Of a stretch of 64,000 nt of DNA, positions 1,960-35,289 are shown piece after piece. Under the pieces are notes generated by a model that saw only the letters and a list, made by a program, of their open reading frames with translations, did no database searches and was not told the origin of the DNA. The stretch comes from a virus, in IMG/VR virus record IMGVR_UViG_3300033407_000002, positions 1 to 64,000 of that record; one strand, written 5' to 3'. A program made the translations under genes and the position numbers. Each line of letters begins with the position of its first letter. The first letter of the stretch is position 1.

Positions 1960-2433
1960 TTATTCGTATTCGACTGCCATTCGGGCAATGATCTCCAGCG
2001 GTACGCCGTGCGTATTCCTGGCCGCGCATGCCCTGATCTCCGAAACCGTTTCCACCTTGCACTCGCGGAATGACACTTCGTACCGTGCCAGCCTTGCCGC
2101 CAGAACGTAGTTCCGGTACTCCCATTCGCGGATGTTCGTATTGTCGACGATGACCAAATTGACGCCGGCGCTCAGCGACTCAAGGAACTTCGACATACAC
2201 GCCGCATGCGCTTCGGCGATCTTGGCCGGGTTGAAGCGGTACACCAACGGACCGCTCGGTTCCTCTCGCACCATGAAGTAATCGTCGGCGCTGCACACAG
2301 CGCACGAATCACCTTCATGGACAAGCCATTTCGCGAGATCGGCCACCATGGTTGACTTTCCACTGCCCGGCACGCCACGCATTATGATCACCCGCCGCAG
2401 TTCTTTATCCACTTGCCACCTCCGTCTTTTCAA
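1960..2433 (-). CDS. P-loop NTPase / kinase-like ATP-binding protein (AAA_33 / polynucleotide-kinase-like)
   Basis: Walker A motif RVIIMRGVPGSGKST followed by a VIVDNTN Walker-B-like strand. The 157-aa size is typical of small phage kinases. Confidence 0.7.
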   Translation of the reverse strand: MKRRRWQVDKELRRVIIMRGVPGSGKSTMVADLAKWLVHEGDSCAVCSADDYFMVREEPSGPLVYRFNPAKIAEAHAACMSKFLESLSAGVNLVIVDNTNIREWEYRNYVLAARLARYEVSFRECKVETVSEIRACAARNTHGVPLEIIARMAVEYE

Positions 2434-6416: not shown

Positions 6417-7508
6417 TTAGATATGACAATCGACGATTGTTACCCACTGATCGCCACGGAGCGATGCAACCAACTTGCCGAACTCTCCATCCCATTCGTT
6501 CTGCTCGTTGGAAGCCATGCCCCACCATCCCATCGTCCCCTTCTCGTACCACTTGCCGTCCATCACGACGGCCCAAGCGCTCAGCGACGGTGCGGACTCT
6601 ATCCACTGACCGACCAGCATGCCTTCTGGAACTTCTGGCAATTCAAAATTCGCCTGGCCAGCCCTTGCCCCAAGCGGCCATCGCACCGACGCCCACTCGT
6701 AATACACACCTCCTCGCGGTCGCTCATCGGGCGGCAACAATAGCCACGCGGCATAAGCCTCACGGTTCTGCACGATGGCAATCTCGAACTCTTGCTCGTT
6801 TAGCTCAGCCCGCTTCATGCACTCGACCACCCACTCGCGCCTTTTATCGACGTTTGCCTGCTTCATCGCTTGGCGATCCATGTCGCCAACGCGAGCCTGG
6901 TCTACTTTCGTTCCCAGAATCTCAAGCCTGCCTTCATAACGTCCGCCTACAGTCCACCAGTCCCACCGTTTATTTGGGTTCGTTCTGCGGACGATCTTGA
7001 CCACTTGCCCGAGATCCACCATCGCGTACCCAAACTTGTGCTTCTCGTTCAGCTTCTCGCCAAAGTACGCCACCTCGCTCTGGCTCTTCGCGAAGTCCAA
7101 GAAACTACCTACCTCTGCGGCTGGCAATTCCACTTCCTCGTACCCATCCGGAACGAACTGCACCTTGGCGCGATATCCCTTTCCGTCGTTCCAGTCGTCC
7201 GACCGCCAGTGCATGCCATTTCCCCAGCCGGTCCCGGCGATCGGTCCGATCGTTACCAGCTCCTCGTGCGTCGGGTCACGAAAGAATCGCTCGTCGCTGG
7301 GCAGATGATACTCGCCTTCGCTATCCCGATACCGGACGACTTTCAACGTCTCGAACTCTTTTCGCGTTTCCTCGGTTTCGTCGATATCCTGCACGTACTC
7401 GTCATCGGTGCCCGTACATTCGAACTCATGCCATGGCTGCAACAGAGCAGTCAAACTCTCGTATGTCGGCTGCTCGTCGGTGACTACCATCACGCTGAAG
7501 TGACTCAT
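6417..7508 (-). CDS. conserved-looking hypothetical phage protein
   Basis: 363-aa track ORF (MSHFSVMVVTDEQP...PWHEFECTG...); no catalytic motif recognised. Confidence 0.65.
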   Translation of the reverse strand: MSHFSVMVVTDEQPTYESLTALLQPWHEFECTGTDDEYVQDIDETEETRKEFETLKVVRYRDSEGEYHLPSDERFFRDPTHEELVTIGPIAGTGWGNGMHWRSDDWNDGKGYRAKVQFVPDGYEEVELPAAEVGSFLDFAKSQSEVAYFGEKLNEKHKFGYAMVDLGQVVKIVRRTNPNKRWDWWTVGGRYEGRLEILGTKVDQARVGDMDRQAMKQANVDKRREWVVECMKRAELNEQEFEIAIVQNREAYAAWLLLPPDERPRGGVYYEWASVRWPLGARAGQANFELPEVPEGMLVGQWIESAPSLSAWAVVMDGKWYEKGTMGWWGMASNEQNEWDGEFGKLVASLRGDQWVTIVDCHI

Positions 7509-8299: not shown

Positions 8300-8869
8300 T
8301 TAGAACAGGCTCGGCTGGCTGGCTTCCGCCCGTGCATTGACCAATCCCTTAGTGACCAGCGAGCGAGCTGCGCCAAGCGTCACGCCAAGCTGCTCGGCGA
8401 TCTGCTGATACTCGGCTCCTTCGATGTATCGCAGACGAACCGCCGCCTGTTGCAGTTGCGGCAGCCGGTCCAGTATCCCGAGCACATGACCACACTCTTC
8501 GCGGACAACCATCGATTCGCGTACCTCGCGGTCGTCCGCCGCCGGCTGGTATCCGTCGCGGCTCTGCTCGGTCGCTACTCCGATGGCAACCTGCTCGGAT
8601 CGCAGTGATCGCTTGCCGGCTCCTAGGTGCGTTGTAACGGCTGTCTCGCATGCGCACTTGGCGATCGTCAGTACCCAGTGGCGGAGCTGATCGAGCGACT
8701 CGGCTCGGCAGGCTGCGGCTCCGGTAACCGCTTTGAGGCATACGGTCTGGTACAGGTCGTCGAGGTCGAACCGCTGATTCATGCGGCTTAGACGGCGGCT
8801 GTAGCGGGCGCGGATGGTTGATTCCAGGTCGGCTAGCGTTTCGCAGACGAGGTCCGGGGTGACTTGCAT
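8300..8869 (-). CDS. ECF-type (group 4) sigma-70 family RNA polymerase sigma factor, paralog 1
   Basis: Region 2 (RFDLDDLYQTVCLKAV...LRHWVLTIAKCA) and region 4 HTH (LDRLPQLQQAAVRLRYIEGAEYQQIAEQLGVTLGAARSLVTKGL). Track ORF 8300..9106 trimmed to ATG 8869-8867, just downstream of a leader element. Confidence 0.8.
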   Translation of the reverse strand: MQVTPDLVCETLADLESTIRARYSRRLSRMNQRFDLDDLYQTVCLKAVTGAAACRAESLDQLRHWVLTIAKCACETAVTTHLGAGKRSLRSEQVAIGVATEQSRDGYQPAADDREVRESMVVREECGHVLGILDRLPQLQQAAVRLRYIEGAEYQQIAEQLGVTLGAARSLVTKGLVNARAEASQPSLF

Positions 8870-13442: not shown

Positions 13443-13473
13443 CATAGACCGATTTACCCAGCAAGTATGTCGC
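13443..13473 (-). promoter_or_regulatory. promoter-like motif GCGACA-N18-GTC (copy 5), drives the ncRNA locus
   Basis: Minus strand: GCGACA TACTTGCTGGG TAAATCG GTCTATG. Confidence 0.55.
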
Positions 13474-14015
13474 TACCCGCCGCGAATTTTATTCCACCGC
13501 CGTATCCGGCGCTCCTCCTTCGACTCCCGGCACTGCTTGGCGAATTCCATGTCGGCCAACCTATCGTCGGCAAGCACCTCATCCCTACGCTTCCTCTCCT
13601 CCGGCCCCTCGTAGACAACGCCATCGCTCTCATACAGTCCGGCCGGCGAACTACCGGCCACCTGTCCAATACCCACGTACGGCGCTACCTCCCGAATCTT
13701 CGCCAGCGAAAGCAGCCCCACATTGCGGCACGATAGCAGCTCCGAATCCGGCACATTCCTAACCGATCCAATCGTCACATAGCCGCGTGACTCCAGACCG
13801 TTGGCCATCCGGGTCGGCAGCACACTTGCCAGCGGCGTACAGTCCTCCATATTCCACTCGCGCGATGACGCCAGATCCTCGGATCGCTTCCGCCGCGCGT
13901 AACGAATGAACTCCCGGCAGGCTTGCACGTACTTCCGCTGCTGCATTAGCACCCGGACTTCACCCATTACCCTGGAGAAGTCCTCCATCCATGCATAGCC
14001 TACTTCTTTGTGCAT
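13473..14015 (-). CDS. RNA polymerase alpha-subunit C-terminal-domain-like (HhH) protein
   Basis: LPTRMANGLESRGYVTIGSVRNVPDSELLSCRNVGLLSLAKIREV aligns by eye with the alpha-CTD pattern L-V-R-S-A-N-C-L...I-G-D-L...E-L-L...N-L-G-K-K-S-L-x-E-I. Track ORF trimmed to ATG 14015 (MHKEVGYAW), 8 nt after the upstream stop. Confidence 0.6.
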   Translation of the reverse strand: MHKEVGYAWMEDFSRVMGEVRVLMQQRKYVQACREFIRYARRKRSEDLASSREWNMEDCTPLASVLPTRMANGLESRGYVTIGSVRNVPDSELLSCRNVGLLSLAKIREVAPYVGIGQVAGSSPAGLYESDGVVYEGPEERKRRDEVLADDRLADMEFAKQCRESKEERRIRRWNKIRGG

Positions 14016-14375: not shown

Positions 14376-14855
14376 TTACCCGTTGTCCTTGCCGGCCGAT
14401 TCTTCCTCGCGCTTCTTTTTGTTCTCTTCGATCTTCTTTGGATCGGGTTTGTACTTGCCGGTCGATTCAATGCCGGTACCCTCGAGCATCGATTGCTTAG
14501 CGTCGGCCTCGGACATGCCGTGCTCCTGTAGAAACGCGACTAGCTTTTCGGCTTCGTCGATTTCGTCTTCTCCCCAGACAACCTCTGGCTCGCCACCTTC
14601 CGGTTCCTCGGCCTCTTCGGCGGTTTCTTCGATGGGTTTCGTTTCCGTAGCCTCGGTCTCAACTGACTCGGTCTCAACGTCCTCGGGCTTACCCTCCTCC
14701 GCGACTTCGGTTTCATCAGCCATCACGTCCTGCGCCGGGCTTTGTTCGTCACCTTCAACTACCAGATCACCAGCAGACCAAAGCATCTTGTTGCTCTGGC
14801 TTTTTACCGGTGGTGTATCGTCGGCTTCATTTACTTCATCTGCTTTTTCCGTCAT
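14376..14855 (-). CDS. highly acidic protein (scaffold-like or decoy-like; function unknown)
   Basis: 159 aa with long Glu/Asp/Thr-rich tracts; 4-nt overlap with the portal stop. Confidence 0.55.
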   Translation of the reverse strand: MTEKADEVNEADDTPPVKSQSNKMLWSAGDLVVEGDEQSPAQDVMADETEVAEEGKPEDVETESVETEATETKPIEETAEEAEEPEGGEPEVVWGEDEIDEAEKLVAFLQEHGMSEADAKQSMLEGTGIESTGKYKPDPKKIEENKKKREEESAGKDNG

Positions 14856-17800
14856 AGCAATAGCTCCGCTTGTACGACCCAGTATGAACCAACCTGTTTC
14901 CCGTCCGACATTATCGGCTTGCGGTCCACGCCTGTAACCTTGTATTTACTGTTCCGGTTCAAAACGACCTCATGCTGGTGCAATGATTCGTGGCCGAGCG
15001 CTACGTCTGGAGACAGCGCCTTAGTCCCTTTCGGCAGACTGATCTCGAACCTCCCTGTCTGGCCAGAGTCCACATTGTTGGCAAATCCATCGGCCACATT
15101 CTGCATCGTAGACGTCGAACCAAACCCTTTATCCGTGAGCGTCTTACCAATAAAGGACTCAGGATCACTGCCGAGCATGTTTTCAAAATCCCCGCCGCCG
15201 CGATAAACCGTCATCGGCTCGGCCAATTCCGGCGCTCTCTGAAATGCCCCGTCCAGATCCTTGATCTTTTGCTTGTTGTCCGAATCCATTTTCTGCTTGC
15301 CGCGCAGACCGTCGTTCATGTCGGAAAAACTACCGCCGGTATAGACCGCGATCGCGTCAATATCCTTTTCCGATGCTCCCTTGGCCCACTCTCCGAACTG
15401 CTTGTTGTGCAGTTCCGCCGAATCCTTGCCGGTCATCGACGAGGTGCCGATCTGGCTTTCCCACTTATGGCCACTGGCCAGCACAAACTCATTTGCCGTG
15501 CGGTCTACCTTAGGTTTTCCGGTTCCGCCTGACTTTAGATCGTCCGCCTGCGCCCGCATCCTCTTGGCATCACCACTCCATTTCGCCGCCAGTTCCGGGT
15601 TTAACTCGGCAAACTTCTTGGACTTGTCCTCGAGACGATCCGCTTCGGCGGTCAGTCCAGCGATCTCCTTCTTGACCTTGGGCGACAGTTCTTTCGGTGC
15701 CTCCTTTTTCGGTTCACCTGGAGCCTCCTCTTTCGGAGCCTCCTTTGGTTTCTCCTTTGTCTCGTCCTTCTTGCCGGCGGCCGGAGTCTCATCGCCACCA
15801 CCCGCTAATTTCGGAAACAGTTTTTTCGCTGAGGCTATGGACCCCGCAGCGGCTGCCACATTGCCCGACGATACCCATCTGCCGTTTGCGTCTCGCGGCT
15901 GATTCGGGTTGTACGCCTTGGCAAGACTGCCGCCGATGGCATCCACAATCGCCTTGACCAACCCGGCATCGACTCCCTTGCTTGCCCCCGCGTCGTGCTG
16001 CCGGAACTCGCTCTGAAGATGACCGACCACCGCCGACAATTCGCGGATGCTCTGACCGACATCATGCGAGACCGCCGCCTTCTGCAACTCCCTCAGTTCG
16101 GCGGACAGCGATTCGACTTGGCTCTTGATCGCAACGGTCTGCGGATCCTCAAAATCCACCCTCTCGGAAAATGCGGACTTGGCCAGCGCAATCCCCGGAG
16201 CACTGACCGGCTCACGTACCGGCCTGGTCGCGCCGCGCAACGGTACCCGGACCCTCTGCCCCCCAACGACCACGACCGCATAGGACAAGCTCGCCGCCGA
16301 ATTCAGTAGTTCATTACGTGGATCCGGTACAGACCCATGCTTCTGAATGTACCCAAGCGTCACATGCGGCTGATAATCCGGGTACGTTTCCACGACCGGT
16401 AGTGCCGCCAAGAGCCGGTCATGCGCTCCGTGGATCGCGGTACCCAGCACTTCGACCTTCAGTACGTTTTCGTCGTCGTTCTCGAACAGGCCACTTGGTC
16501 CGAATGTCACGTCAATCTGATCCAGCCGACGAACCTGGTCCACCACTTCTTTCAGCGGCGTTCCGACGATTCCATACAAGAGCGTTACGTGCGGCCATTC
16601 TTCCAGACCGTCTCCGACCATCGAGTCGGGATCGATCTTGGCTTGTTCGGCTTTGACCAGCTCCAAGACCGACGGCGGCAATTCGAGCATCACTGCTCCC
16701 GGCTTCTCCTCGGCCGGAGTGCCTCGCAATAAGCGGTCGCGTACTTCCCCCTCGGGCAATAGCGCCGCGATCTCCTCAATGCCCGCACCACCCGCTACCG
16801 CCCGATCGTCCCAGTAAACGTCCGCGAACACCTTGCCGCTTGGCATGTCGTTTAGCGCTACGTCCGGATTCTCGTTGATGCCGTCGTACGGTATCCCATG
16901 CGAATCGAGCCAACCTCGCAATAGTTCGTTGTCCTCCCGACAGGTGAAGATCACGATCCGGCAGCCGGCGCGCTTCAGGCGATGGAGCTTATCGACCGCC
17001 GACGATATCGGTTCACCTATTGTCTCGACATGAAACGAGCCGTCGTACTCGGCCAGCGTCCCGTCGAGGTCAACCGCAACGACTGGTCCGGGGCGCTCTG
17101 ACCTTCCGGGAATCGCCTTGGATAGCGACTTGCCGAACGACCGCGCAAACGGCGACGTGAGCCCGGCGGCACTACCATTGCCATTCGCCGCTCCTCCCAC
17201 TCCACCGTCTAGCGGAGGCTGACCCTGCTTCTTTGGCGGCTGCGGTTCGTCGACAACCAGACCAGTCGATGTGACTCGAGCATCGTCCCGCCAATCTCCA
17301 AACGGCTGTAATCCACGGATCGCCCGCCACTCACGCATGGTCCTAACACCGGCGGTCAAGTCGGTCGTTAACTGCTGCTCGATCAGCGTTGGATCGTCTA
17401 GCGGCTGCGTCTCGAACTCGACGCTGACTGTTGCCCCTTCGTCCTGCGCGAGCATCGTCCATTCGCCGCCAAGTAGGTCCAGGTCCCCTTGCACGACCGT
17501 TAGCGTTTGCATCAACGACGCGGCCAAACTGCCATAAGTCATATTGTCCGATAGACCGGCCGCCGATTCACCGACACCATGTCCGGCCAGTATGGACCGC
17601 TGCAACTGATCGAATGCCTGGACGTACTCCATGTCCACCGGCGCGGTATCGCGGCTCAACGTCGCACCGCCTCCCATCGCTATGGCCGATTGGTCGGTAT
17701 CCTCGTCCTGCAACTTTCGGTTGAGCCGCTTTTCCGCCGCGTCCAGCTCCGGCTCGCTGATCGTCTTATCTTCGAACGACACGAACCCCAGCGGCCGGGG

Positions 17801-18544
17801 TCCTCGCTTGAGCTGTTTCCACCTGGTCATGTCGACCATCAGAGCCGAGTCAATCCACCAGCCAACCGCATCGGTCGGACTCTTGCCGTCGCCCCTAAGG
17901 TAAGGGTGCGGCAGGCGGATCACGCTCAGGGATTCGACCGGCAGTATCGCGCCGGAGAGCATGCGAATGAGCGGATTGACGATGAAACCTAATCCGGCCT
18001 GGTAGTGCAGTAGCCGGATTCCGCCGTTGGGACAGTTCTCATACTGGCCGGGGTAGACCGGCTGAGTCAGCGCCATGGGAATGATATACCGCGCCGCTGT
18101 CCGGCTGCCGTCTTGCGTCGGTCGGTTCCAGATCAGGCAGCATCCGTGCAGGTGCAATTGCTGGATATATTCCCAGCGGAACATGGCTCCTGACTCGGTC
18201 CGGTTTGGCTGGTCGACCATGCGCGCGACCCAGTTATCTTCCGGCACGGTATCGGCTGAGCCGTCTTGCGCCATGGACTTCCAGATCGAGCCCCATTTCT
18301 TTCTGGCGGCCTTGCGCTTGGCGGTTTTGGCCGGTTCGGCGGAGTATACGTAGCCGTGGGCACGCGCGGCTTGTCGGCCAAGGACCGCGATCGCTACGTA
18401 GTTCCAGCCCTGGTAGCTTTTACTTTCCTTATTGTGGTCCGAGCCCCATTGGCCGATATTATGGTGGCCGAGTACGTCGGCTATTGCCTCGTGATAGGCG
18501 GGATCGGACTGGACCTGAAGGCCGGCCGGTAACTTGAATGCCAT
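14852..18544 (-). CDS. portal protein fused to HAD phosphatase, 2H phosphoesterase and ADP-ribosyltransferase domains
   Basis: A single 1230-aa ORF directly downstream of the terminase genes. Residues 1-435 are portal-like. Residues 485-585 are HAD (VAVDLDGTLA, VIFTCRE, KVFADVYWDD). Residues 615-770 are 2H, with two HxT motifs (PHVTLLY, PHVTLGY). A Lys/Glu-rich linker and an NPNQPRDANGRW motif follow. Residues 1015-1230 are an R-S-E ADP-ribosyltransferase (VYRGG, GFGSTS, QHEVVL). Confidence 0.85.
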   Translation of the reverse strand: MAFKLPAGLQVQSDPAYHEAIADVLGHHNIGQWGSDHNKESKSYQGWNYVAIAVLGRQAARAHGYVYSAEPAKTAKRKAARKKWGSIWKSMAQDGSADTVPEDNWVARMVDQPNRTESGAMFRWEYIQQLHLHGCCLIWNRPTQDGSRTAARYIIPMALTQPVYPGQYENCPNGGIRLLHYQAGLGFIVNPLIRMLSGAILPVESLSVIRLPHPYLRGDGKSPTDAVGWWIDSALMVDMTRWKQLKRGPRPLGFVSFEDKTISEPELDAAEKRLNRKLQDEDTDQSAIAMGGGATLSRDTAPVDMEYVQAFDQLQRSILAGHGVGESAAGLSDNMTYGSLAASLMQTLTVVQGDLDLLGGEWTMLAQDEGATVSVEFETQPLDDPTLIEQQLTTDLTAGVRTMREWRAIRGLQPFGDWRDDARVTSTGLVVDEPQPPKKQGQPPLDGGVGGAANGNGSAAGLTSPFARSFGKSLSKAIPGRSERPGPVVAVDLDGTLAEYDGSFHVETIGEPISSAVDKLHRLKRAGCRIVIFTCREDNELLRGWLDSHGIPYDGINENPDVALNDMPSGKVFADVYWDDRAVAGGAGIEEIAALLPEGEVRDRLLRGTPAEEKPGAVMLELPPSVLELVKAEQAKIDPDSMVGDGLEEWPHVTLLYGIVGTPLKEVVDQVRRLDQIDVTFGPSGLFENDDENVLKVEVLGTAIHGAHDRLLAALPVVETYPDYQPHVTLGYIQKHGSVPDPRNELLNSAASLSYAVVVVGGQRVRVPLRGATRPVREPVSAPGIALAKSAFSERVDFEDPQTVAIKSQVESLSAELRELQKAAVSHDVGQSIRELSAVVGHLQSEFRQHDAGASKGVDAGLVKAIVDAIGGSLAKAYNPNQPRDANGRWVSSGNVAAAAGSIASAKKLFPKLAGGGDETPAAGKKDETKEKPKEAPKEEAPGEPKKEAPKELSPKVKKEIAGLTAEADRLEDKSKKFAELNPELAAKWSGDAKRMRAQADDLKSGGTGKPKVDRTANEFVLASGHKWESQIGTSSMTGKDSAELHNKQFGEWAKGASEKDIDAIAVYTGGSFSDMNDGLRGKQKMDSDNKQKIKDLDGAFQRAPELAEPMTVYRGGGDFENMLGSDPESFIGKTLTDKGFGSTSTMQNVADGFANNVDSGQTGRFEISLPKGTKALSPDVALGHESLHQHEVVLNRNSKYKVTGVDRKPIMSDGKQVGSYWVVQAELLL

Positions 18545-18632: not shown

Positions 18633-18974
18633 TCAGTAATCTCCGGGCTGCATGATCGTCATTCCGCCCTTGTCGTTGGGCATGATCCACACCGTTCCGG
18701 CGATCGTATCCTCGAGCTTCGCGAAGTCGCAACCGCCACGGCTTTTGGCCGCCTCCATTTGGCGTCTGACCTCCATCACGCAGTCCATTAGCAGCGGTAC
18801 TAAGCACTGGTCATAGTTCCGCGCTCCTTTCTCGGACTCTCCAGCGCAGGCCGCATGGATCGCGCTAGTAATCAGCAGCCACGGGTACCGCTCTGGGTAC
18901 GGGTGGACCAAAACGCCGTCTTCGATGGCGGACTCGGTAGTGTAAAGGCTAACGACATTCATGGCGGGCTCCAA
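18633..18974 (-). CDS. hypothetical protein
   Basis: 113-aa track ORF; promoter motif 26 nt upstream. Confidence 0.55.
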   Translation of the reverse strand: MEPAMNVVSLYTTESAIEDGVLVHPYPERYPWLLITSAIHAACAGESEKGARNYDQCLVPLLMDCVMEVRRQMEAAKSRGGCDFAKLEDTIAGTVWIMPNDKGGMTIMQPGDY

Positions 18975-19035: not shown

Positions 19036-20745
19036 CTATCTAGCGTTGAAATGTTTATGCGCTCTCTGGCAGCATTCCTGGGAGTGGTCGACTTTCATAC
19101 TCGGATCTTGGAACTGCGATGTTACCTCGCAGACCGAACAACAGTAGTCGCTACCCGGCGCTACGGGATGCTCGCAACCGGGAGCTGTGCAGATCGTCTG
19201 GACTTTCGCGCTTAGACCGGCCATTATCGCTGCCCTTGGCTTCTTCTTCCCGAGAGTCCCCTCTAGCATCAAGTGAGCGCCGGCTGCGGCGTCTACCTGA
19301 TCCTTGAATTTTCCGTTCGGGAAGAACTGCATTTGCTGCTTGAACACCGGAGTCCATTTGTCGTTCACAATGAACACTCGCCCTAGCCTCACATCCCTAG
19401 CCAGTGGCTTTGCTCGAGCATCCTTGTTGCCTACCGGTCGGACCGATTCGAAATTAACACCGCGCATATGCTTCTCGGTCGATCTCGCCGAGAGCTTGCC
19501 GCCGGAACCTCCCTCCTCCTCCATGCCGAACCGATAGCGGTCGAAACCGTATCGCGCTATGTCAACATCCTTGGCGAGTACAAGCTGAGTCTCCACGTCA
19601 TCCACATCCCACTGTCCGGCAATCACGTTCAGGATGTAGTAGTCGACGTGCTCCTCACCGAACTTATCCCTCCGAGTCTTCTTCCCAACCAAAACAAGAG
19701 CGGTTTCGCAACCCGCACCCTCGGTCGCCGCCTTGTCGACGAACCGCACCACTGCGTCCAGTTCAGGGACATCCTTAGCCTCTATGTCAATCAAGCACTC
19801 TGGCTTGAATATCCTCCCGGCGATTGCCTTGGGGTCCTGTTGCAATTGTGCCGGCGCATCATCCCCAAGCTCCCTCTCCATGTCGTCTACGATTTCGCCG
19901 GTCAGCCGCAAAGGATCCAGTAGCTGCCCGGTTTCCGTCCGCCAGTCTCCACCGTAGCCGTAATCCTTCATTGCCAAACTAGGGTCGAATCGCATCGGAA
20001 AGCGAATGATCGTCCAAGGCTCATCCCTACCCTCGAGCTGTGCCGACTCGTTCGCCTCGTACGCAATGGAACTCGGGTCATCCGGTGCCAATCGCTGTTG
20101 AGAAATGATATGCACAACTCCCTTTGTTCGCCCTCGCGTAGAGAGTTGACGGCGGTAGAACGTCTTCATGTCGTTCTTAACCTTCTCGTCGTAGGCATCT
20201 CGCGCGTTGAGCGGGTCCTCCCAAAGCACGAATCGCGGGTGCTCTCCGGTGACTCGCCCGCGCCGGGTCGTAGCCAGCCGCCATCCACCGGACTTATTCC
20301 GGTAGTTGCTCTTAGCCTTCGTGTCGTCCCGGAACTCCAGGTTATGCCACAGCGTACGAAACCATGGAGACTCCATTAGTGACTTTGCGTCCGATGCGTC
20401 GCGCGATGCCAAGTCTCGGTCGTAGCTAATACTGAGCACCCCGACTCGCGGATCCAGTGACCATATCCACGCTGGAAACACGACCGATATCAGGGACGAC
20501 TTTAGGGTCTCAGGCGGCAGATTGATGCAAAGCCGCGAGATCTTCCGGTAGTAAGCGGCCTCGAGATAGTTGCAAACGACCGGGATATACCCGGACATAA
20601 TGAGATCGCCGTCCACCCTCGGGACCGCTGGCCACGCATACTGAAGGAAATTGACCAGTCGGCGGCATGATCCACGGACGGTCGACCTAAGTTGCGGGTT
20701 CTGAGCTAACTGATCCGCCGTCGGCCTGAACGAGACCAGCTCCAT
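19036..20745 (-). CDS. terL: terminase large subunit
   Basis: 569 aa immediately upstream of the portal. Variant P-loop INLPPETLKS, nuclease-half motifs (VDKAATEGAG...ALVLVGK, EEEGGSGGK, DQVDAAAGA) and a C-terminal Cys cluster. Confidence 0.8.
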   Translation of the reverse strand: MELVSFRPTADQLAQNPQLRSTVRGSCRRLVNFLQYAWPAVPRVDGDLIMSGYIPVVCNYLEAAYYRKISRLCINLPPETLKSSLISVVFPAWIWSLDPRVGVLSISYDRDLASRDASDAKSLMESPWFRTLWHNLEFRDDTKAKSNYRNKSGGWRLATTRRGRVTGEHPRFVLWEDPLNARDAYDEKVKNDMKTFYRRQLSTRGRTKGVVHIISQQRLAPDDPSSIAYEANESAQLEGRDEPWTIIRFPMRFDPSLAMKDYGYGGDWRTETGQLLDPLRLTGEIVDDMERELGDDAPAQLQQDPKAIAGRIFKPECLIDIEAKDVPELDAVVRFVDKAATEGAGCETALVLVGKKTRRDKFGEEHVDYYILNVIAGQWDVDDVETQLVLAKDVDIARYGFDRYRFGMEEEGGSGGKLSARSTEKHMRGVNFESVRPVGNKDARAKPLARDVRLGRVFIVNDKWTPVFKQQMQFFPNGKFKDQVDAAAGAHLMLEGTLGKKKPRAAIMAGLSAKVQTICTAPGCEHPVAPGSDYCCSVCEVTSQFQDPSMKVDHSQECCQRAHKHFNAR

Positions 20746-23017: not shown

Positions 23018-24240
23018 AATGGCAAACGCATTTGCTGAAGTCGCTTCTTTTGCAGTTCGGTATACGCCTCGCATATCTCGCACCCAATCCAGTCCCGACC
23101 CAGATCCTGCGCGACTTGTGCCGTGGTTCCCGATCCCAAGAAGGGGTCAAGTACGCGACCTCTCCGTGTTGCCCCGCCACACTGACAAGCTGCATGGAAG
23201 CCGCGGTCGATGTAACTAGTGACGTGCCGCTCCGCATCGCGATTGCCGACTACCTGCTCGTAGCGGTCGGACTTGTACTCATCTGAATGCTGCAGATCGC
23301 GGTCTTGAAACTGCCGAGAATTTCTTCCGGGCAGTTTTGTTTTCTCGCCTGGCCTGGTTGGCCTGCGCTCCGAGTCAACGACTCGTACCCATGGCTTTCC
23401 GCATTCGAGGCAGACGGTTTCGGGGCATCCTGCGAGAATGCAGGGTTCTACGAGCTTTCGAGGAAACGCGGCAAAGTGCTGGCCACTATAACTTTCTGCA
23501 GGAATGGTCCAAACCGATCTCTTGTTTCGGCGGTCGACTAAGTCAGTGACATGATCCTGGAAGTGGGCATTCTGCTTCGACTTGGTCTTTCCATTGCGTG
23601 TGTTACTGAGCGCCTTGGGTGCCTGCGCCCGTCCGCGACTATGCGTATTCTCGCTGCACGGCTCGCTGATAGCGTACCAGTCGTAGAAATATTTCCGCCG
23701 CTTCGCCAGAAGAAACAGATACTCATGGGCAGTCGTACAGCGATCCCGGACCGACGATGGCATCGGTGAGGGTTTTTCCCAGATTATGTCCTGTCTCAAA
23801 ACCCAACCAGCATCCTGGAGAGCAAACGCAAGCCTCCATGGAATGCCAAGCATGTTTTTTGGTGCGCGACCTGTGTTTTTCGACGGTCCCGTAATCGCTT
23901 TTCCAAGCGGTGCCGCTTTACATTGCCCGCCAGAAATTGTGCTAAGCCTTGCATTGCCTTCCTGGCCTCGAGATTGAGCGCCCCAACTCCCTGAATAAGT
24001 TTCTCCGATGTTTAGCCATAGCGTGCCATGGTCCGCAAGAACCCGCTTCACCTCAGAAAACACGCTGGCCAGTTCGGCGATGTATTCACCTGGCGTTTGC
24101 TCCAAGCCGATCTGTCCGTCTGCGCCGTAGTCTCTCAGGCCCCAGTAAGGAGGACTCGTGATACAACAGTCGATCGAACTGTCGGGGATCGACTTGAGAG
24201 TCTGCCGATTGTCTCCGATGAGGACTTGATTCAACTCCAT
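23014..24240 (-). CDS. DNA methyltransferase (N6-adenine/N4-cytosine, beta class)
   Basis: Motif IV ITSPPYWGLRDYG near the N-terminus and motif I VLDPFLGSGTTAQVA near the C-terminus; 408 aa. Confidence 0.85.
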   Translation of the reverse strand: MELNQVLIGDNRQTLKSIPDSSIDCCITSPPYWGLRDYGADGQIGLEQTPGEYIAELASVFSEVKRVLADHGTLWLNIGETYSGSWGAQSRGQEGNARLSTISGGQCKAAPLGKAITGPSKNTGRAPKNMLGIPWRLAFALQDAGWVLRQDIIWEKPSPMPSSVRDRCTTAHEYLFLLAKRRKYFYDWYAISEPCSENTHSRGRAQAPKALSNTRNGKTKSKQNAHFQDHVTDLVDRRNKRSVWTIPAESYSGQHFAAFPRKLVEPCILAGCPETVCLECGKPWVRVVDSERRPTRPGEKTKLPGRNSRQFQDRDLQHSDEYKSDRYEQVVGNRDAERHVTSYIDRGFHAACQCGGATRRGRVLDPFLGSGTTAQVAQDLGRDWIGCEICEAYTELQKKRLQQMRLPL

Positions 24241-27200
24241 TAGACCGCCGTCCTTAACTGCAACTGCCTCTGACCCATCGACTCCAGTAGACTCTTTGCG
24301 AGAGCAAGCCCCATGGACTCGCCGGCATCGCTAAGCGAACAAAGACCGTCACTAGAAAAACGGCCGTCAATTGATTCCGATGCCTGGATTTTCGCACCCA
24401 TCAACTCAACCAACCGCTGCTCCATACACGCCTCGTAGTGCATGTGGATTACCTTGCACGGCTCCGACTGTCCGATCCGGTACGCCCGGCCACTGGCCTG
24501 CCGCGTCGTCGAAGTCGATAGCGAATTCTGCCACCAAACTAAAGTCGCGAAGTTGTACTTATATCCGCCGTTCCCATCCCGCAGAAACAAATCGAGCCCC
24601 GTTTCGACCAGACGGGCATTGGAGATAATCACATCGCACCCCGGCGCATTACGAGCTATCCACTCCTCACGCTTCTTGGTCGACACTGCTTGGCTCCTGA
24701 GTACCTTGACCCGTAAACCGACCCTCTCTAGTAAGGACTCCAAGCGGACCTGAACATCACGCTTTTGCGTCATTTCTACAAAGATCCATACCTGACGGCC
24801 GGCCCGCGATTCAGCCCGGACCGTTTCTATCAACTCCCGCTCCTTGGGCCGTATCGTCGTCCGGCTCAAATTGCCCGGCGTTACCAAGTCGCACCACTCC
24901 CCGAACTCATCCTGATACCCGATCGAATCCCAGCCGTATGGAAAATCCGGATATCCGATTAAGCAGTGAACGAGCCGGCTCAAAAGGCTCATATCCTTCT
25001 TCTCCATCGCTACCTTTATCGCCCCCGCCATAGCCCGCTCGAGCTTGCGATACTCGGCCGCTTGCTCGCAGTCCATCGCCACTGACCGGACTGTCTTCTC
25101 CATCGATGGCAGTTCATCCGATACGTCAGCCAGACTGAGGAAAACTGACTTATCCAAGACGTGATCGCCGAACAAACTGGGCATGATTCCCGGCCGTACC
25201 TTGACAGTCGTTCGGCCCTTGCTGCCGCGACTGGTACGGTTCGATTCACCGAGCTTAGAGCGGACCGTCTTCTCCAGCCGGCCGTAGCGGCGAACAAACT
25301 CGGTCGTCTGACTGTAACTAAATCCGAGAGTCTTCAGTGTGGCTGGACTGCTCCGCCATAACAGATGGAAGATTGAATGCGCGTAGCCGTTTAAGTACGT
25401 TCCGGTGAGCGGCAGAACGTGGTCGACCGACTTTACTAATTTCGATGCTGAGCATGCTATCGCACTGGAGGCGGCACACGCAGTGTGCACTTCGTCGAGT
25501 ATCGCGTACTGGAACATCCCCCGCATTTTCTTGTGTATGTAGGTCGCGACCGGCCACCTGTCTAGTTCATGCGTCCACTGCCATAGCGGCGACTTGCACC
25601 CGGCGCAGTCGTGCTTCGTCTTCCCGAGGTCCTCGAGCGTCAGGAACTCGTAGCCGTCATCGCAGTCCTCGTTCCTCTTTCGCGGCTGGATATGACAGAC
25701 GGCGCAGTGCAGCGAACTACCGGTTACCGACTCCACTACGGCCGGCTCCCATGGCGTACCGAGCTTGGCCATCGACTCGCTGACAATGTAATACTCGGAG
25801 CCAGCCGGACTCACCCTGGAGCGTGCTAGTGGTATCAACTCGCGGTAGCGCTCGATGATTCTTGCAGTAGCCGCCGGCACGATAGCCGATATCTCGCGAG
25901 ACCACTTGGCTACCAGGTGCGGCGGACACATCACGATCGCTCGGTAGGGCCGGCAGGCAGCATGCGCATGGACGGCTAGCGTTGAAACAGAGGTGTTGTG
26001 AGTGACAATGCAGTCGTCCGTGACATAGAGATTCCTTTTAGTGCTTACCTTAATGCACTGGCATTCAGCCCAGCCAGCGTCTTGGATGTCACGAATGGAT
26101 CTTGCGGGAAGATACTTGGAGTTTGGCTTCCACTCCTTCTTTTTCCAAGACGATCTCGACGGGCTGATCGTGCTTGGCAGGCTTACGTTGATCCTGTAGT
26201 TCAACTGCCCTTCTTTTCTTTCGCCCTTGTACGAGAAGTACGGAACTCTCTGTGCGATAGAAGCACGACCGCCGATACTCCATACCAAAAATCGCACACC
26301 TTGAGCTAACTGCGGCGATACTGTGCTGTATTCGATGCCGCTTTTATAAAAGAACCCGTCCGTATCCAGCAGCCCCTGGAGCAACTGAACCCGTTGCTTC
26401 CAACTAGCGAACATATAGTCATGTGGAATGAACTTACTTTCAGCCCGCTTTTCCATGAGCCCAAGTGATTTGATTGCTCGAACTACTTCGTTTTTCTGCC
26501 CCTTCGTCTTACTGACAATACCGTAGTTCGCCCGCTCAGGATCTCTCCCTCGCTTCCTGAAAGTCGCTGTGCTTGGCAGCACCAATTCGATTAACTTCAG
26601 AATGTCGGGGTAAAACGTCGTGAAAGAAACAGTGTGATTTGTAAAGTGACCGTCACCAAGCAGCACTCCCAGCAAATACGGATCAAGTGGCAGTTTCTTG
26701 TCCTCTCCCCCTAGATTCAACAAAGGCAGGAAGAACTGACTCTGCAATGCGTAGCCCCCCTTGCCTCGCTTCAGAACACACTTGCCCTGCATTTGCCCTG
26801 CCGAGAGAACCTTGCCACCGGTCCCCCTGAATCGCTCGTTCGGCGTACGAACTAGCCACAAATGCTCATGGCAGCACCGCGTCTTTCCGCCGTCACTGGT
26901 GGTCACTTCAACAATCTGCTTAACGCCCTGGGGAAACACCCCCTCCACAAGCCCGACTCCACCATCAGGATCCACAACTTGGTCGCCGACCTTCATTTCG
27001 CCCATCAACTTCCATCCGGTCGGAGTCAACACCTTACAATCCAGCGGCTGTGCTTTTCCAGCCCCGATCTCGCCGATAAGATTGACGGTCCTTTGACCGG
27101 CGCGCATGGCTTTTACCATCGCGCAGATGGCATCGTACTGACCTCCGATCGGACGGCGGTTCTCAGGCGATAACTCGATAGACCGATCCCCTCGACGATG

Positions 27201-27278
27201 AAGCGGATCAAAGATGCTCTCTATCTTGGCCGATAACTCGTCGGCGTACTCAAGCATGTACTCTGCTACTGCACTCAC
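24240..27278 (-). CDS. SNF2/DEAD-like helicase, interrupted by an intein in the Walker A motif
   Basis: GTG start. GEIGAGK | intein | TSVSTL restores GxGKT. Also DExH (AILDEVH) and SNF2 motif VI (QASGRAYRIGQSEPCKV). The spliced product would be 659 aa. Confidence 0.85.
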   Translation of the reverse strand: MSAVAEYMLEYADELSAKIESIFDPLHRRGDRSIELSPENRRPIGGQYDAICAMVKAMRAGQRTVNLIGEIGAGKAQPLDCKVLTPTGWKLMGEMKVGDQVVDPDGGVGLVEGVFPQGVKQIVEVTTSDGGKTRCCHEHLWLVRTPNERFRGTGGKVLSAGQMQGKCVLKRGKGGYALQSQFFLPLLNLGGEDKKLPLDPYLLGVLLGDGHFTNHTVSFTTFYPDILKLIELVLPSTATFRKRGRDPERANYGIVSKTKGQKNEVVRAIKSLGLMEKRAESKFIPHDYMFASWKQRVQLLQGLLDTDGFFYKSGIEYSTVSPQLAQGVRFLVWSIGGRASIAQRVPYFSYKGERKEGQLNYRINVSLPSTISPSRSSWKKKEWKPNSKYLPARSIRDIQDAGWAECQCIKVSTKRNLYVTDDCIVTHNTSVSTLAVHAHAACRPYRAIVMCPPHLVAKWSREISAIVPAATARIIERYRELIPLARSRVSPAGSEYYIVSESMAKLGTPWEPAVVESVTGSSLHCAVCHIQPRKRNEDCDDGYEFLTLEDLGKTKHDCAGCKSPLWQWTHELDRWPVATYIHKKMRGMFQYAILDEVHTACAASSAIACSASKLVKSVDHVLPLTGTYLNGYAHSIFHLLWRSSPATLKTLGFSYSQTTEFVRRYGRLEKTVRSKLGESNRTSRGSKGRTTVKVRPGIMPSLFGDHVLDKSVFLSLADVSDELPSMEKTVRSVAMDCEQAAEYRKLERAMAGAIKVAMEKKDMSLLSRLVHCLIGYPDFPYGWDSIGYQDEFGEWCDLVTPGNLSRTTIRPKERELIETVRAESRAGRQVWIFVEMTQKRDVQVRLESLLERVGLRVKVLRSQAVSTKKREEWIARNAPGCDVIISNARLVETGLDLFLRDGNGGYKYNFATLVWWQNSLSTSTTRQASGRAYRIGQSEPCKVIHMHYEACMEQRLVELMGAKIQASESIDGRFSSDGLCSLSDAGESMGLALAKSLLESMGQRQLQLRTAV
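25995..27053 (-). mobile_element. intein (353 aa) with LAGLIDADG homing endonuclease; Ala1 / WCT class-3-type
   Basis: Residues 76-428 of the helicase. Block A is AQPLDCKVLTPTGW (Ala at position 1). Block B is ...CCHEHLW (Trp at B:12). LAGLIDADG motifs are LLGVLLGDGH and LLQGLLDTDGF. Block F is ECQCIKVS (Cys at F:4). Block G is IVTHN|T (Thr at G:5; HN with Thr at +1). Confidence 0.8.
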
Positions 27279-33602: not shown

Positions 33603-34348
33603 CACAGCCCCTTTGCAGCCGCGCGCATGATCGCCAAATACGGCCCCGTCTCGGTCGGATTCACCTGATTGATCGCCGCCGCAATGTGCCGTCTCCAACC
33701 CTCAAGCCAATCCGTACTTGGCACCGTGCGCGTTAGCATCACCCGCTCTATCTCCGCGACTATCGCCTGCTTGGCCTCCGCAAGATTCGGACACAAGCCG
33801 CGACTGCACAACTCTTCGAGCCTTTCGCACGTTCCATCGATTGCAGTCTTCAGTCTCGCGGCAGTGGTCGGATCGTTCAGTTCCGCCGATCTCTCTGAAC
33901 TGATCTTTGTTACCCAGTCGAGTTCGGGCACTGGTGGCGGAGGCGGAGGAGGAGGTGGCGGTGGCGGTGGCGGATCAGGCTTACCTTCGATCTCGACCGT
34001 AATCCAGATCGGCAGCCCCTCCCCGCGTTGCGACACGTAAAACCGCTGGCCAGATTCCCCGCGAATCAGAAACTGACCAGGCCGGAATTCCTCGTGCACG
34101 GTCGGCGGAAACGGAGCTGCAACATCATGCACCTCGATCCACTTGACGCCTGGCAACGCATCCAGCAGCACCCCGCGACCCTGCTTCTCCGATAGCTCCT
34201 CGACGAGAATCACCACGCCATCACCATCGGGCGTTACCGTGGCATGCCTGGCGGACAGGAACGTAACCTGATACTGTCCTTCGACCCCAAAAGCCGATGC
34301 AAACAGCGATGCAACCAGAACAATCGCAGAGAAGCCGACTCGTATCAT
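33602..34348 (-). CDS. secreted protein with a 14-residue poly-proline linker
   Basis: Trimmed to ATG 34348 (ATGA overlap with the protease stop). Signal peptide MIRVGFSAIVLVASLFASAFG. The P14 tract is encoded at 33932-33973. Confidence 0.6.
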   Translation of the reverse strand: MIRVGFSAIVLVASLFASAFGVEGQYQVTFLSARHATVTPDGDGVVILVEELSEKQGRGVLLDALPGVKWIEVHDVAAPFPPTVHEEFRPGQFLIRGESGQRFYVSQRGEGLPIWITVEIEGKPDPPPPPPPPPPPPPPVPELDWVTKISSERSAELNDPTTAARLKTAIDGTCERLEELCSRGLCPNLAEAKQAIVAEIERVMLTRTVPSTDWLEGWRRHIAAAINQVNPTETGPYLAIMRAAAKGL

Positions 34349-35289
34349 GTGCCACTTCCCCCGGTAGTTTTTGCAAGAATCCAAGTGATGATATTTTTCG
34401 ACACGATCACTACCCCGTCTCCGAAACGCGGATCGCGACCAACCGGCCCCGCGTCCTTAAGGAACTCTTCGGAGCGCAAGAACGCGACCAGCTCGCGCAT
34501 GCCCATGTAGACGTCCATTCCGAGCTGCTTCATCGCTTGCCGAAGCAACAGCAAATCTCCAGCGGCTGTAGGTGACGCCATGCTCGTTCCTGACATCAGC
34601 ACAAGATCGTTATTCAGGCCGCACGAAATGATTCCACCGCCACCTGCGGCTAAGTCAATCGCCGGTCCACCACTGGAAAATCCCGACAAAGAACCGTCTT
34701 GGTTCGTCGAACTGACCGCTACATTCGTCGGACTGATCGCCGGCGCAATCACCGTATTGGATCCGTTGAACCCCGAATTACCACCCGAAAACAACAGCCA
34801 CTTGCCGGACTCAACGATGCGTTTCATCGCCCTCTCTGTTCCGGAATCAACGGACTGCCCGCCGCCCCAGGAACAGTTCACTACATCGCCTTCTTGATCC
34901 GCTGCCCAGTCCAGACCGGCAATCGTGTTGGAACCGCTGCCGTTATCCCCGAGTACCTTACCGACCTTGATTCCAGCTCCGGGAGCACCACCAATTCCAT
35001 TCCGACCGGCCATACTGCCGATGGTATGAACGCCATGGGAGTGCCTATCCGTGATGTTCGACGAACCGCCGCCGGTGAAATTCTTGCCGTCCAGCGGCTC
35101 GGGCAACGACGGATGAGCTTTCCATCCCGTATCGAGACTAATGCCGATACATCCGCGCCCATCGATCCCCGCATCCCACACCGGTTGCATCAGCGCCGGC
35201 GGCCGGGTCCATGGCGTTGCGCCCTGCATGACCATGACGTTCGTGTGAACGTACGTATCCGGCGGGACCCCGTAAATCGGCTGAGTCAT
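34345..35289 (-). CDS. subtilisin-like serine protease (peptidase S8)
   Basis: Catalytic triad motifs GISLDTG (Asp), HSHGVHTIGSMAG (His) and GTSMASPTAAG (Ser), plus the oxyanion-region NCSWGGG; 314 aa. No obvious signal peptide. Confidence 0.85.
   Translation of the reverse strand: MTQPIYGVPPDTYVHTNVMVMQGATPWTRPPALMQPVWDAGIDGRGCIGISLDTGWKAHPSLPEPLDGKNFTGGGSSNITDRHSHGVHTIGSMAGRNGIGGAPGAGIKVGKVLGDNGSGSNTIAGLDWAADQEGDVVNCSWGGGQSVDSGTERAMKRIVESGKWLLFSGGNSGFNGSNTVIAPAISPTNVAVSSTNQDGSLSGFSSGGPAIDLAAGGGGIISCGLNNDLVLMSGTSMASPTAAGDLLLLRQAMKQLGMDVYMGMRELVAFLRSEEFLKDAGPVGRDPRFGDGVVIVSKNIITWILAKTTGGSGT

Follow-up and report, generated by a model that had tools for sequence, protein, structure and literature searches.

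A portal-anchored polyvalent phage protein combining HAD phosphatase, 2H phosphoesterase and ADP-ribosyltransferase domains

What might a phage portal protein do with some 800 residues of enzyme-like sequence attached to its portal fold? We addressed this question for a 1230-aa open reading frame in a window of 64 kb, the whole stretch of DNA that was analysed, which comes from a genome of 100 kb or more in which a second, conventional portal gene elsewhere is formally possible. The original prediction of a single unbroken reading frame was borne out (Table 1), and its nucleotide ranges for the domains translate correctly to residues 1-435, 485-585, 615-770 and 1015-1230. All motifs that it had placed were found at their sites (DLDGT at 492, FTC at 533, YWDD at 577, HVT at 652 and 727, NPNQPRD at 879, YRGG at 1114, STS at 1143 and QHE at 1190). 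Profile matches back all four domains that had been called, namely a portal, a HAD phosphatase, a 2H phosphoesterase and an R-S-E ADP-ribosyltransferase (ART), together with their catalytic residues, and the structure model backs the portal and 2H folds. The domain order is that of an HK97-type portal, a disordered linker, HAD, 2H, a helical and Lys/Glu-rich spacer, and a VIP2/C3/ExoS-type ART.

Table 1. Features of the portal-effector locus, with positions in the window
Feature	Residues	Position	Strand	Basis or remark
Portal-anchored polyvalent protein, whole ORF	1-1230	14852..18544	-	ATG start, no internal stop
Portal domain, HK97/PF04860 type	1-435	17240..18544	-	Pfam, AF2 model, Foldseek
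Pro/Gly/Gln-rich disordered linker	436-485	17090..17239	-	pLDDT <50 at residues 435-483
HAD-type phosphatase domain	486-602	16739..17089	-	small, apparently capless, BT0820/HAD-IIIA-like
2H phosphoesterase domain	612-772	16229..16711	-	Pfam, two invariant HxT, Foldseek
NPNQPRDANGRW motif	879-890	15875..15910	-	within helical spacer 776-910
Lys/Glu/Pro-rich low-complexity linker	911-959	15668..15814	-	sequence; pLDDT <50 in C-terminal model
ART domain, VIP2/C3/ExoS R-S-E clade	1040-1229	14855..15427	-	Pfam, PHROG, PDB profiles
Very acidic 159-aa ORF		14376..14855	-	ATG overlaps portal stop codon (ATGA)
Large terminase subunit gene terL		19036..20745	-	PHROG 38, E 4.8e-48; upstream of portal gene

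The N-terminal region matches the Pfam family Phage_portal at residues 95-340 (E 4.9e-9) with 36.2 bits, slightly below the cut-off of 39.1, and the same family is matched by 21/21 relatives (best E 2.1e-19) and by all 30 of 30 giant relatives (best E 6.8e-40). The portal core of the AF2 model has a pLDDT of ~80-90, and in Foldseek searches the model matches the HK97 portal 8cez (E 1.8e-11, prob 1.0, TMt 0.57) as well as the T5, lambda and GTA portals. The portal gene had been placed directly next to terL, which is not so, as a 109-aa ORF (18633..18962) sits between them; the order terL, small gene, portal is also found in L002-L004 and L006. Downstream of the portal gene there is no recognisable immunity gene, the next gene being that of the acidic 159-aa protein, for which family searches gave no match. 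Residues 102-142 of this protein are 71% identical to residues 776-816 of the relative P0002 (E 9e-12), and its module is also 54% identical to residues 911-938 of P0005, similarities that tblastn bears out in L008 and L007. A module that is encoded by a separate ORF in this phage stands inside the polyprotein in its relatives.

The HAD domain gave zero Pfam matches and was recognised by PHROG 1238 (E 8.5e-24), PHROG 415 'polynucleotide kinase' (E 5.2e-9), the NCBIfam BT0820-family HAD phosphatase model NF046079 (E 1.5e-9) and TIGR01662 (HAD-IIIA), as well as by the PDB entries 2obb (E 1.6e-6) and 1xpj (E 1.1e-5), with weak matches to PNKP, T4 Pnk and Pnkp1. Its catalytic motifs are D492-x-D494-x-T496, T534, K570 and D578-D579. 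The 2H domain that follows matches the Pfam family 2_5_RNA_ligase2 at residues 649-735 with 37.3 bits, over the cut-off of 27, and H652, T654, H727 and T729 stay the same in all 21 members. By fold it looks like the generic enzymes Usb1, LigT and CPDase, which its model matches in Foldseek at prob 1.0 and a TMt of 0.60-0.66.

The assignment of the C-terminal ART rests on sequence profiles, its structure model having a pLDDT of 46.7. These profiles include the Pfam family ADPrib_exo_Tox at residues 1047-1208 (76.3 bits, over the cut-off of 23.4), PHROG 802 'Alt-like RNA polymerase ADP-ribosyltransferase' over residues 928-1160 (E 9.5e-14) and, in the PDB, Lmo0066 (8za7, E 6e-12) together with ExoS, CPILE-a and VIP2. 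R1115, S1143-T-S and Q1190-x-E1192 line up with the R, STS/STT and E-x-E of the toxins, and the replacement of the relatives' E-x-E by Q-x-E suggests that this ART may have an acceptor other than arginine. The sole close homolog of the C-terminal part, P0022, is a MuF (PF04233)-ART fusion. Between the domains, the linker after the portal differs in length and sequence among family members, and the motif at residues 879-890, in its general form KxF[DN]Px[QEH]PR[DG]xxG[RK][WF], recurs 12 times in 9 members, against 0.155 occurrences expected from shuffles; P0045 holds three copies of it.

An exhaustive profile search at a threshold of E<=1e-30 places the protein in a portal clade of 718 clusters, many members of which are 1000-2250 aa long. 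Among the 163 proteins whose domain make-up was counted, the architecture is portal-2H in 41, portal-HAD-2H in 34, portal-HAD-2H-ART in 4 and portal-2H-ART in 1, and P0124 has the arrangement Portal-2H-(MuF)-NUDIX-ART. Cargo in the clade includes 2H, NUDIX, ART, ART-PolyVal, InPase, LPD1 and Zeta toxin domains, all of them typical of the polyvalent proteins of Iyer et al. 2017 (PMC5512222). The portal(-HAD)-2H core is kept across the clade, and the distal module is exchanged, being ART, NUDIX, InPase, ART-PolyVal, Zeta toxin or others. Portal-HAD-2H-ART recurs independently in P0002, P0003 and P0005, on separate contigs and at 41-56% identity, and portal-HAD-2H(-ART) homologs on independent metagenomic contigs share the synteny with terL.

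Taken jointly, these data make it moderately probable that the protein is a portal-anchored polyvalent effector whose three-enzyme extension of ~800 residues is enclosed in the head and acts on the host. In established portal structures the C-terminus, or crown, points into the capsid, which would place as many as 12 cargo copies in the head, surrounding the channel by which the DNA leaves. If T4 Alt, MuF-toxin fusions and other ejection proteins are a guide, the cargo would be released, probably via cleavage in the exposed linkers, and could then enter the host together with the DNA or work in the first moments of infection. There the 2H domain would most likely cut the (cyclic) oligonucleotides by which host immunity signals, or else 2',3'-cyclic phosphate ends, its neighbour HAD may then take off the resulting terminal phosphate, and the ART may modify a host protein using NAD+. 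A virion-carried package for host takeover or counter-defence, as the original prediction had it, would be a reasonable description of such a protein and repeats what has been predicted in print for this class (PMC5512222, PMC9503650).

It is also conceivable, albeit unlikely in our judgement, that the cargo never reaches the host, either because the enzymes do their work before assembly, in the cell that makes the phage, the polyprotein serving only as a co-expression device, or because they remain in the capsid, where, attached to the portal, they would form an inner body that has a structural role or helps to retain the DNA. A portal-bound domain can leave the capsid only after cleavage, and the covalent bond to the portal argues against ejection without processing. 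A cleavage site was not identified, nor was a protease: family searches recognised no prohead protease or peptidase domain in the 1230-aa protein or its neighbours, and a subtilase, 16 kb off, was the sole peptidase to emerge. The HAD motifs, moreover, are degenerate in P0014, P0016, P0019 and P0021, as they might be if the role were in part structural. Against non-delivery, the catalytic residues are invariant in 2H and kept in most family members in HAD and ART, the distal cargo is exchanged like effector cassettes, and MuF, a carrier known from the head interior, is the fusion partner in the ART part's nearest homolog. T4 Alt offers a precedent of a head-packaged ART that is injected (background in PMC5512222).

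An RNA end-healing pathway appears rather improbable. The 2H domain would open the 2',3'-cyclic phosphates at RNA ends that host anticodon nucleases or toxins produce, HAD would remove the phosphate, a kinase would phosphorylate the 5'-OH and a ligase would reseal the tRNA, as in T4 Pnkp/Rnl. Such a pathway agrees with the LigT- and CPDase-like fold of the 2H domain and with the HAD-IIIA/Pnkp-like type of the phosphatase, and Pfam AAA_33 confirms the P-loop kinase that had been noted at 1960..2433 (E 4e-12). However, the kinase is 12 kb distant and unlinked to the portal gene, there is no obvious reason to tether a repair enzyme to a portal, and the distal modules of relatives (ART, NUDIX, InPase, Zeta toxin) suit a conflict over nucleotides or NAD better than they do repair. 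Since Pfam or PHROG scans recognised no RNA ligase in the window ORFs that they covered, and since Iyer et al. 2017 (PMC5512222) never saw the 2H domain of a polyvalent protein accompanied by an RNA ligase, the proposal that this kinase completes an end-healing set is not supported.

Finally, it is extremely improbable that the ORF is an artefact in which an ordinary portal gene has been joined to enzyme genes unrelated to it, by a chimeric assembly or by a frameshift or stop that was overlooked: the GC content of the ART part is somewhat lower than that of the portal part (0.535 against 0.605) and no support for an artefact was found, whereas the identical protein (P0001) is carried by three contigs from different sources (JGI, Logan and ENA), the same domain order recurs on the independent contigs of P0002, P0003 and P0005, portal-HAD-2H is seen in 38 proteins overall and GC3 in the coding frame remains high along the entire ORF.

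Returning to the portal-anchored effector, several known systems offer a comparison. T4 Alt is a free protein that reaches the prohead by means of a capsid-targeting sequence and is shortened by the gp21 protease. In both cases an R-S-E type ART is tied to the phage head, a location that is predicted here, whereas the ART described here forms the C-terminal end of the portal polypeptide, with Q-x-E in the place of E-x-E. By family profile, the nearest solved structure to the 2H domain is the anti-CBASS 2H enzyme Acb1 of T4 (7t26, E 1.9e-4; 9q2g, E 5.6e-4), and Pfam Acb1 is matched by 8/21 family members, with the 1230-aa protein scoring 16.5 bits, below the cut-off of 27. Acb1 is a free protein of ~150 aa (chains of 144-165 aa) and to our knowledge not virion-associated, whereas the 2H domain here is part of the portal polypeptide. 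With T4 Pnkp and other HAD-IIIA 3'-phosphatases and with the BT0820 family, the HAD domain has in common a DxDxT core of ~115 residues, apparently without a cap; it differs from T4 Pnkp in lacking a fused kinase domain, and its score of 38 bits is far under the BT0820 equivalog cut-off of 165. MuF-toxin fusions and polymorphic toxins (Jamet et al. 2017, PMC5576092) likewise follow a head-internal carrier with a variable C-terminal cassette, and P0022 provides a link to them; here, by contrast, the carrier is the portal itself, with no MuF domain detected by Pfam.

With the polyvalent proteins of phages and conjugative elements, the protein shares the joining of several unrelated effector domains to a virion domain, in a terminase-portal phage, and its relatives bear the polyvalent-protein marker families ART-PolyVal, LPD1 and InPase; unlike those proteins, it has no peptidase domain by Pfam. 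The original prediction knew of no described portal with such a domain load, which was overstated, since 2H-portal, Nudix-portal and ART-portal/MuF fusions have been reported, with head packaging and injection predicted for them (Iyer et al. 2017, PMC5512222; 2022, PMC9503650), and cargo-bearing portals are common in the clade. The terms 'HAD phosphatase' and 'HAD superfamily' are absent from the searched text of the 2017 paper, and neither a HAD-2H tandem right after the portal nor the exact portal-HAD-2H-ART(QxE) set is described there (PMC5512222). The 1230-aa protein is therefore no new kind of system but a well-supported case of the polyvalent head-packaged effectors already described, to which it adds a specific domain combination, a conserved HAD-2H tandem, a QxE variant of the ART and a recurrent inter-module motif.

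We show that a single ORF of 1230 codons, beginning with ATG and free of internal stops, encodes a protein in which an N-terminal portal is predicted to be followed by a HAD phosphatase, a 2H phosphoesterase and an ADP-ribosyltransferase (ART). This domain interpretation, first made from the sequence alone, proved sound: profiles support the portal, HAD, 2H and ART assignments, folds support the portal and the 2H domain, and the motifs named in the original prediction were all found in place (DLDGT at residue 492, FTC at 533, YWDD at 577, HVT at 652 and 727, NPNQPRD at 879, YRGG at 1114, STS at 1143 and QHE at 1190). The accompanying statement that the gene lies directly downstream of terL holds for proximity and fails for direct adjacency, as a 109-aa gene intervenes; the order terL, small gene, portal is also present in relatives.

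Profile, fold and position near terL all argue that the N-terminal part is a portal. The Pfam profile Phage_portal (PF04860, HK97-type) matches residues 95-340 with 36.2 bits (E 4.9e-9), slightly missing the gathering score of 39.1, and it matches 21 of 21 relatives (best E 2.1e-19) and 30 of 30 giant relatives (best E 6.8e-40). An AF2 model of residues 1-780, built from 21 family sequences (mean pLDDT 74.9), contains a disordered stretch at 435-483, and its best match in the PDB by Foldseek is the HK97 portal (E 1.8e-11, prob 1.0), with the portals of T5, lambda, GTA and phage 812 also matched at prob 1.0; TMt is 0.5-0.59 across these portals. Portals in BFVD match the same model with E-values of 1e-14 to 1e-19. 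No second portal was recognized among the ORFs scanned in the 64-kb window, the genome being at least 100 kb long.

The possibility that the fusion is an assembly chimera, raised in the original prediction, can be dismissed, since the identical protein occurs in three source collections, on three contigs. The same portal-HAD-2H-ART order is found at 41-56% identity on independent contigs from other samples, near a terminase gene wherever the contig extends that far, and codon-position GC is coherent throughout the ORF. The portal part (GC 0.605, GC3 0.729) exceeds the ART module on both measures, which is consistent with a more recently acquired distal cassette and not with a mis-join.

Positions of the features discussed, in the window and on contigs of relatives (L-numbers)
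Feature	Location	Coordinates	Strand	Remarks
AAA_33 P-loop kinase	window	1960..2433	-	E 4e-12
363-aa protein	window	6417..7508	-	matched over its full length by PHROG 10079 (function unknown), E 3.1e-84
Sigma-70 region-4 (ECF-like) gene	window	8300..8869	-	few genes downstream of portal
Sigma-70 counterpart	L002	11189..11737
Sigma-70 counterpart	L004	11211..11795
Sigma-70 counterpart	L005	12815..13408
Sigma-70 counterpart	L006	10816..11412
Sigma-70 counterpart	L007	7126..7683
Sigma-70 counterpart	L008	11205..11756
180-aa protein	window	13473..14015	-	Pfam RNA polymerase alpha C-terminal domain, residues 66-109, 24.6 vs 23.8 bits, E 2e-5
159-aa very acidic ORF	window	14376..14855	-	ATGA overlap with portal stop, translationally coupled
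Counterpart of 41-residue module	L008	3564..3677
Counterpart of 41-residue module	L007	5665..5763
1230-aa portal ORF	window	14852..18544	-
ART module	window	14855..15427	-	GC 0.535, GC3 0.647
Spacer motif	window	15875..15910	-
terL	window	19036..20745		upstream of portal ORF; PHROG 38, E 4.8e-48
1012-aa P-loop protein	window	24240..27278	-	primase, helicase and 'terminase large subunit' PHROGs; weak LAGLIDADG_3
Counterpart of 1012-aa protein	L003	1..1783
Subtilase (Peptidase_S8)	window	34345..35289	-	E 3e-29
HSDR_N (type I restriction) domain protein	window	49208..50146	+
Tyrosine integrase	window	51272..52291	+	Pfam Phage_integrase, E 6.3e-14
Relative of portal-HAD-2H core	L009	3001..5133		contig JBCDIU010000010.1

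The protein belongs to a large family with a stable core and a variable tail. An alignment of 21 homologs shares about 750 residues, comprising the portal, a variable Pro-rich linker, HAD and 2H; distal to 2H the homologs diverge, four carrying an ART, five a NUDIX domain and several nothing further. An exhaustive HMM search with the core profile against 1.84 billion cluster representatives returned 13,513 proteins at E<=1e-3, of which 718 reached E<=1e-30, and many among the best 150 matches are 1000-2246 aa long. When locally built, family-derived domain HMMs were used to classify 163 proteins, 70 were portal only, 41 portal-2H, 34 portal-HAD-2H, four portal-HAD-2H-ART and one portal-2H-ART, the remaining 13 being other layouts or fragments. 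Pfam domains in the 30 longest relatives include NUDIX (6), InPase (3) and ART-PolyVal (3), as well as Zeta toxin, LPD1, Peptidase_C39, topoisomerase I core, PI3/PI4-kinase-like, GNAT and AAA_33. Individual layouts range from Portal-2H-InPase-...-LPD1 (protein P0088) and Portal-...-ART-PolyVal (P0116) to 2H-NUDIX-... (P0045) and Portal-2H-(weak MuF)-NUDIX-ART (P0124). BFVD likewise holds many 700-1200-aa portals of uncultured Caudovirales, and a 722-aa 'HAD_like domain containing protein' in that collection aligns across 697 columns. When the complete protein was compared by tblastn with 50,697 phage records (INPHARED), the HAD, 2H and ART parts were matched only separately and the portal part never; a cultured relative is therefore absent from these records. 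A Planctomycetota MAG has, on a contig of 200 kb, a relative of the portal-HAD-2H core with 29% identity over residues 34-733; this relative may belong to a prophage and may point to hosts that the clade infects. Five further relatives are in IMG/VR.

Motifs I-IV of the HAD domain are complete, as had been proposed: D492-L-D494-G-T496, T534 (FTC), K570 (SGK) and D578-D579 (YWDD). D492, D494, T496 and D579 are each at least 90% conserved across the family, with motif I degenerate in four of the 21 aligned homologs. The domain is matched by PHROG 1238 (E 8.5e-24), a small-HAD family mislabelled 'phosphoheptose isomerase', and by PHROG 415 'polynucleotide kinase'; NCBIfam gives NF046079 (BT0820-family HAD phosphatase, E 1.5e-9) and TIGR01662 (HAD-IIIA), and in the PDB 2obb and 1xpj match, with PNKP and T4 Pnk matching weakly. 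Because Pfam gave no match for the domain and the score falls under the BT0820 equivalog cut-off, the predicted HAD is assigned at the superfamily level only.

The two HxT motifs of the 2H domain (H652-V-T654 and H727-V-T729) are invariant in 21 of 21 members, which bears out their original identification. PF13563 (2_5_RNA_ligase2) matches residues 649-735 with 37.3 bits, above its cut-off of 27, and in the AF2 model the fold resembles Usb1, LigT and CPDase (Foldseek against the PDB, prob 1.0, target TM-scores 0.60-0.66), that is, generic 2H enzymes. The solved protein in the PDB closest in sequence to the family's 2H domain is Acb1, and the Acb1 profile PF23474 is matched by eight of 21 relatives at E<=1e-3 (best 3.2e-6). 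The 1230-aa protein itself scores 16.5 bits against a PF23474 threshold of 27, so that kinship with Acb1, as judged from sequence, is the best functional lead to the substrate and falls short of family membership.

In the C-terminal part, Pfam ADPrib_exo_Tox (PF03496) scores 76.3 bits over residues 1047-1208 (cut-off 23.4), and PDB profile matches comprise the Listeria ART Lmo0066 (E 6e-12), ExoS, CPILE-a, VIP2 and CdtA. The proposed R-S-E residues, R1115 (YRG), S1143-T-S and Q1190-H-E1192, align with the R, STS/STT and E-x-E of solved toxins, the counterparts being YRG, STT and E-A-E in Lmo0066 and E-Y-E in CPILE-a. Unusually, the ExE motif of the 1230-aa protein starts with Gln; in its portal-HAD-2H-ART relatives P0002, P0003 and P0005 and in the MuF-ART protein P0022 it starts with Glu and reads EME, ETE, EWE or ELE. 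For the C-terminal 450 residues, a single homolog was retrieved, P0022, so a deep alignment of this region is impossible; the AF2 model of residues 781-1230, from an alignment of just five sequences, has a pLDDT of 46.7, too low for use in a fold search. Judging by their catalytic residues, HAD, 2H and ART all look catalytically competent.

The spacers between the cargo modules carry a motif, KxF[DN]Px[QEH]PR[DG]xxG[RK][WF] (with xxxG following), that occurs 12 times in nine family members against 0.155 expected from shuffling. It is found in the 1230-aa protein and in P0002, P0003, P0005, P0045 (three times), P0090, P0107, P0127, P0134 and P0135, always in such spacers. The polyvalent-protein paper and a wider literature search gave nothing relevant on this motif, and the NPNQPRD segment had no tblastn match among cultured phages. 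The motif might act as a signal for processing, docking or packaging.

Immediately beyond the portal gene, the acidic ORF includes a 41-residue module (LVAFLQEHGMSEADAKQSM...KPDPKK) sharing 71% identity with residues 776-816 of P0002, where the corresponding segment lies inside the portal polyprotein, between the NANQPRD motif and the ART. Counterparts are present on two other contigs of relatives, and the window's own polyprotein is without the segment. This placement suggests that the 3' end of the gene has undergone module shuffling or fission. Another reading of the acidic gene, as an immunity gene for the ART, is not supported: it has no family match, the small genes at other ART loci are acidic but non-homologous, and the only conserved stretch in it corresponds to polyprotein-internal sequence of relatives. 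The alpha-CTD-like 180-aa protein was also considered as a mimic of the ART's target or as a decoy, a reading rejected because a homolog is located between terL and portal in the ART-less relative L003; it may instead be a DNA-binding or packaging-associated protein.

Domain identities and order, catalytic residues, flexible linkers, the near-terL position and a distal part that turns over like a cassette are established from the data and frame a possible mechanism. In solved portal structures the portal C-terminus is directed into the capsid, and on this basis the head would enclose, around the channel, an enzyme string of about 86 kDa in up to twelve copies. If T4 Alt, MuF-toxin fusions and ejection proteins are a guide, this cargo would be freed and would enter the host together with the DNA. 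To our knowledge, no portal-tethered enzyme has been demonstrated to be packaged, released or active. Release is the weakest link in this mechanism, because the 1230-aa protein has no peptidase domain, a search near the portal gene recognized no prohead protease, and the sole peptidase recognized in the window, a subtilase, is encoded 16 kb away. This subtilase is a candidate processor of virion polyproteins.

Cleavage by a 2H enzyme leaves a terminal phosphate, and for this reason a neighbouring phosphatase makes sense for the destruction of signals and for the healing of RNA ends alike. For the latter, the original prediction had pointed to a separate P-loop kinase that could complete an end-healing set with HAD and 2H. 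The kinase is indeed encoded, but at a distance of 12 kb from the portal gene; the repair reading is not supported, as no RNA ligase was found among the window ORFs scanned. Signal destruction is favoured on that ground and because the distal cassettes of relatives are NAD- or nucleotide-directed. In its most specific form, which we consider unlikely, the portal-HAD-2H core would be a virion-preloaded, two-step destroyer of immune signals, in which Acb1-like cleavage of cyclic oligonucleotides is followed by dephosphorylation and which is released from the portal at ejection so as to act ahead of phage gene expression; in this phage it would be combined with a Q-x-E ART acting on a non-arginine target. 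If true, it would be the first anti-signalling system tethered to a portal, with the KxFNPxQPRDxxGRW motif as its release or docking signal. Effectors packaged in the head are the first move of a phage against host defence, ahead of phage gene expression. With its hundreds of clusters, fixed portal(-HAD)-2H core and swappable ART, NUDIX, InPase or Zeta toxin cassette, the clade offers a clear set of constructs for tests of cargo exit from a portal, and it would let one ask if cyclic-nucleotide immunity can be pre-empted by an Acb1-like 2H domain acting with a phosphatase.

The window, which encodes DnaB, RecE/RecT and methyltransferases, appears to belong to a large temperate phage whose lineage is undescribed. 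Its tyrosine integrase and HSDR_N genes are on the strand opposite to nearly all others, suggesting a temperate lifestyle or an integrated island. The sigma-70 gene is conserved near the portal gene in most relatives, and a sigma factor within the head-gene region of a phage is unusual. The 1012-aa P-loop protein, kept in a relative, may be an intein-containing replicative helicase/primase. Pfam and NCBIfam gave no match for the 363-aa protein, which may be the major capsid protein of the lineage because of its position in the late region.

The original prediction knew of no described portal with such a domain load, a claim of novelty that is overstated, the class having already been described computationally as polyvalent proteins (Iyer et al. 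2017, PMC5512222; extended by Iyer et al. 2022, PMC9503650). The earlier study, from which the Pfam families ART-PolyVal, LPD1 and InPase derive, reported 2H domains fused to MuF or portal and one InPase fused to a portal, predicted head packaging and injection for such fusion proteins, and proposed that these 2H domains, never seen alongside RNA ligases in polyvalent proteins, are RNases or degraders of nucleotide second messengers (PMC5512222). Nudix-MuF/portal fusions and ARTs on head-associated or portal proteins were added later (PMC9503650). Absent from both papers are HAD (neither 'HAD phosphatase' nor 'HAD superfamily' is found in the text of PMC5512222), the conserved HAD-2H tandem beside the portal, the four-domain combination and the Q-x-E ART. 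The 1230-aa protein is thus a clean and well-supported example of a described class and not a new kind of system; as one extra combination from an uncultured phage, its immediate value is limited. Like polyvalent proteins, it joins at least two disparate effector domains (phosphatase, phosphodiesterase and ADP-ribosyltransferase) in one polypeptide, its effectors are fused to an N-terminal portal near terL, and its relatives carry ART-PolyVal, LPD1 and InPase; virion packaging and host delivery are predictions in the literature (PMC5512222, PMC9503650) as they are here. Unlike MuF polymorphic toxins, it lacks an N-terminal MuF domain: PF04233 gave no match in the protein at E<=1, and MuF is weakly matched in P0124 and present in P0022.
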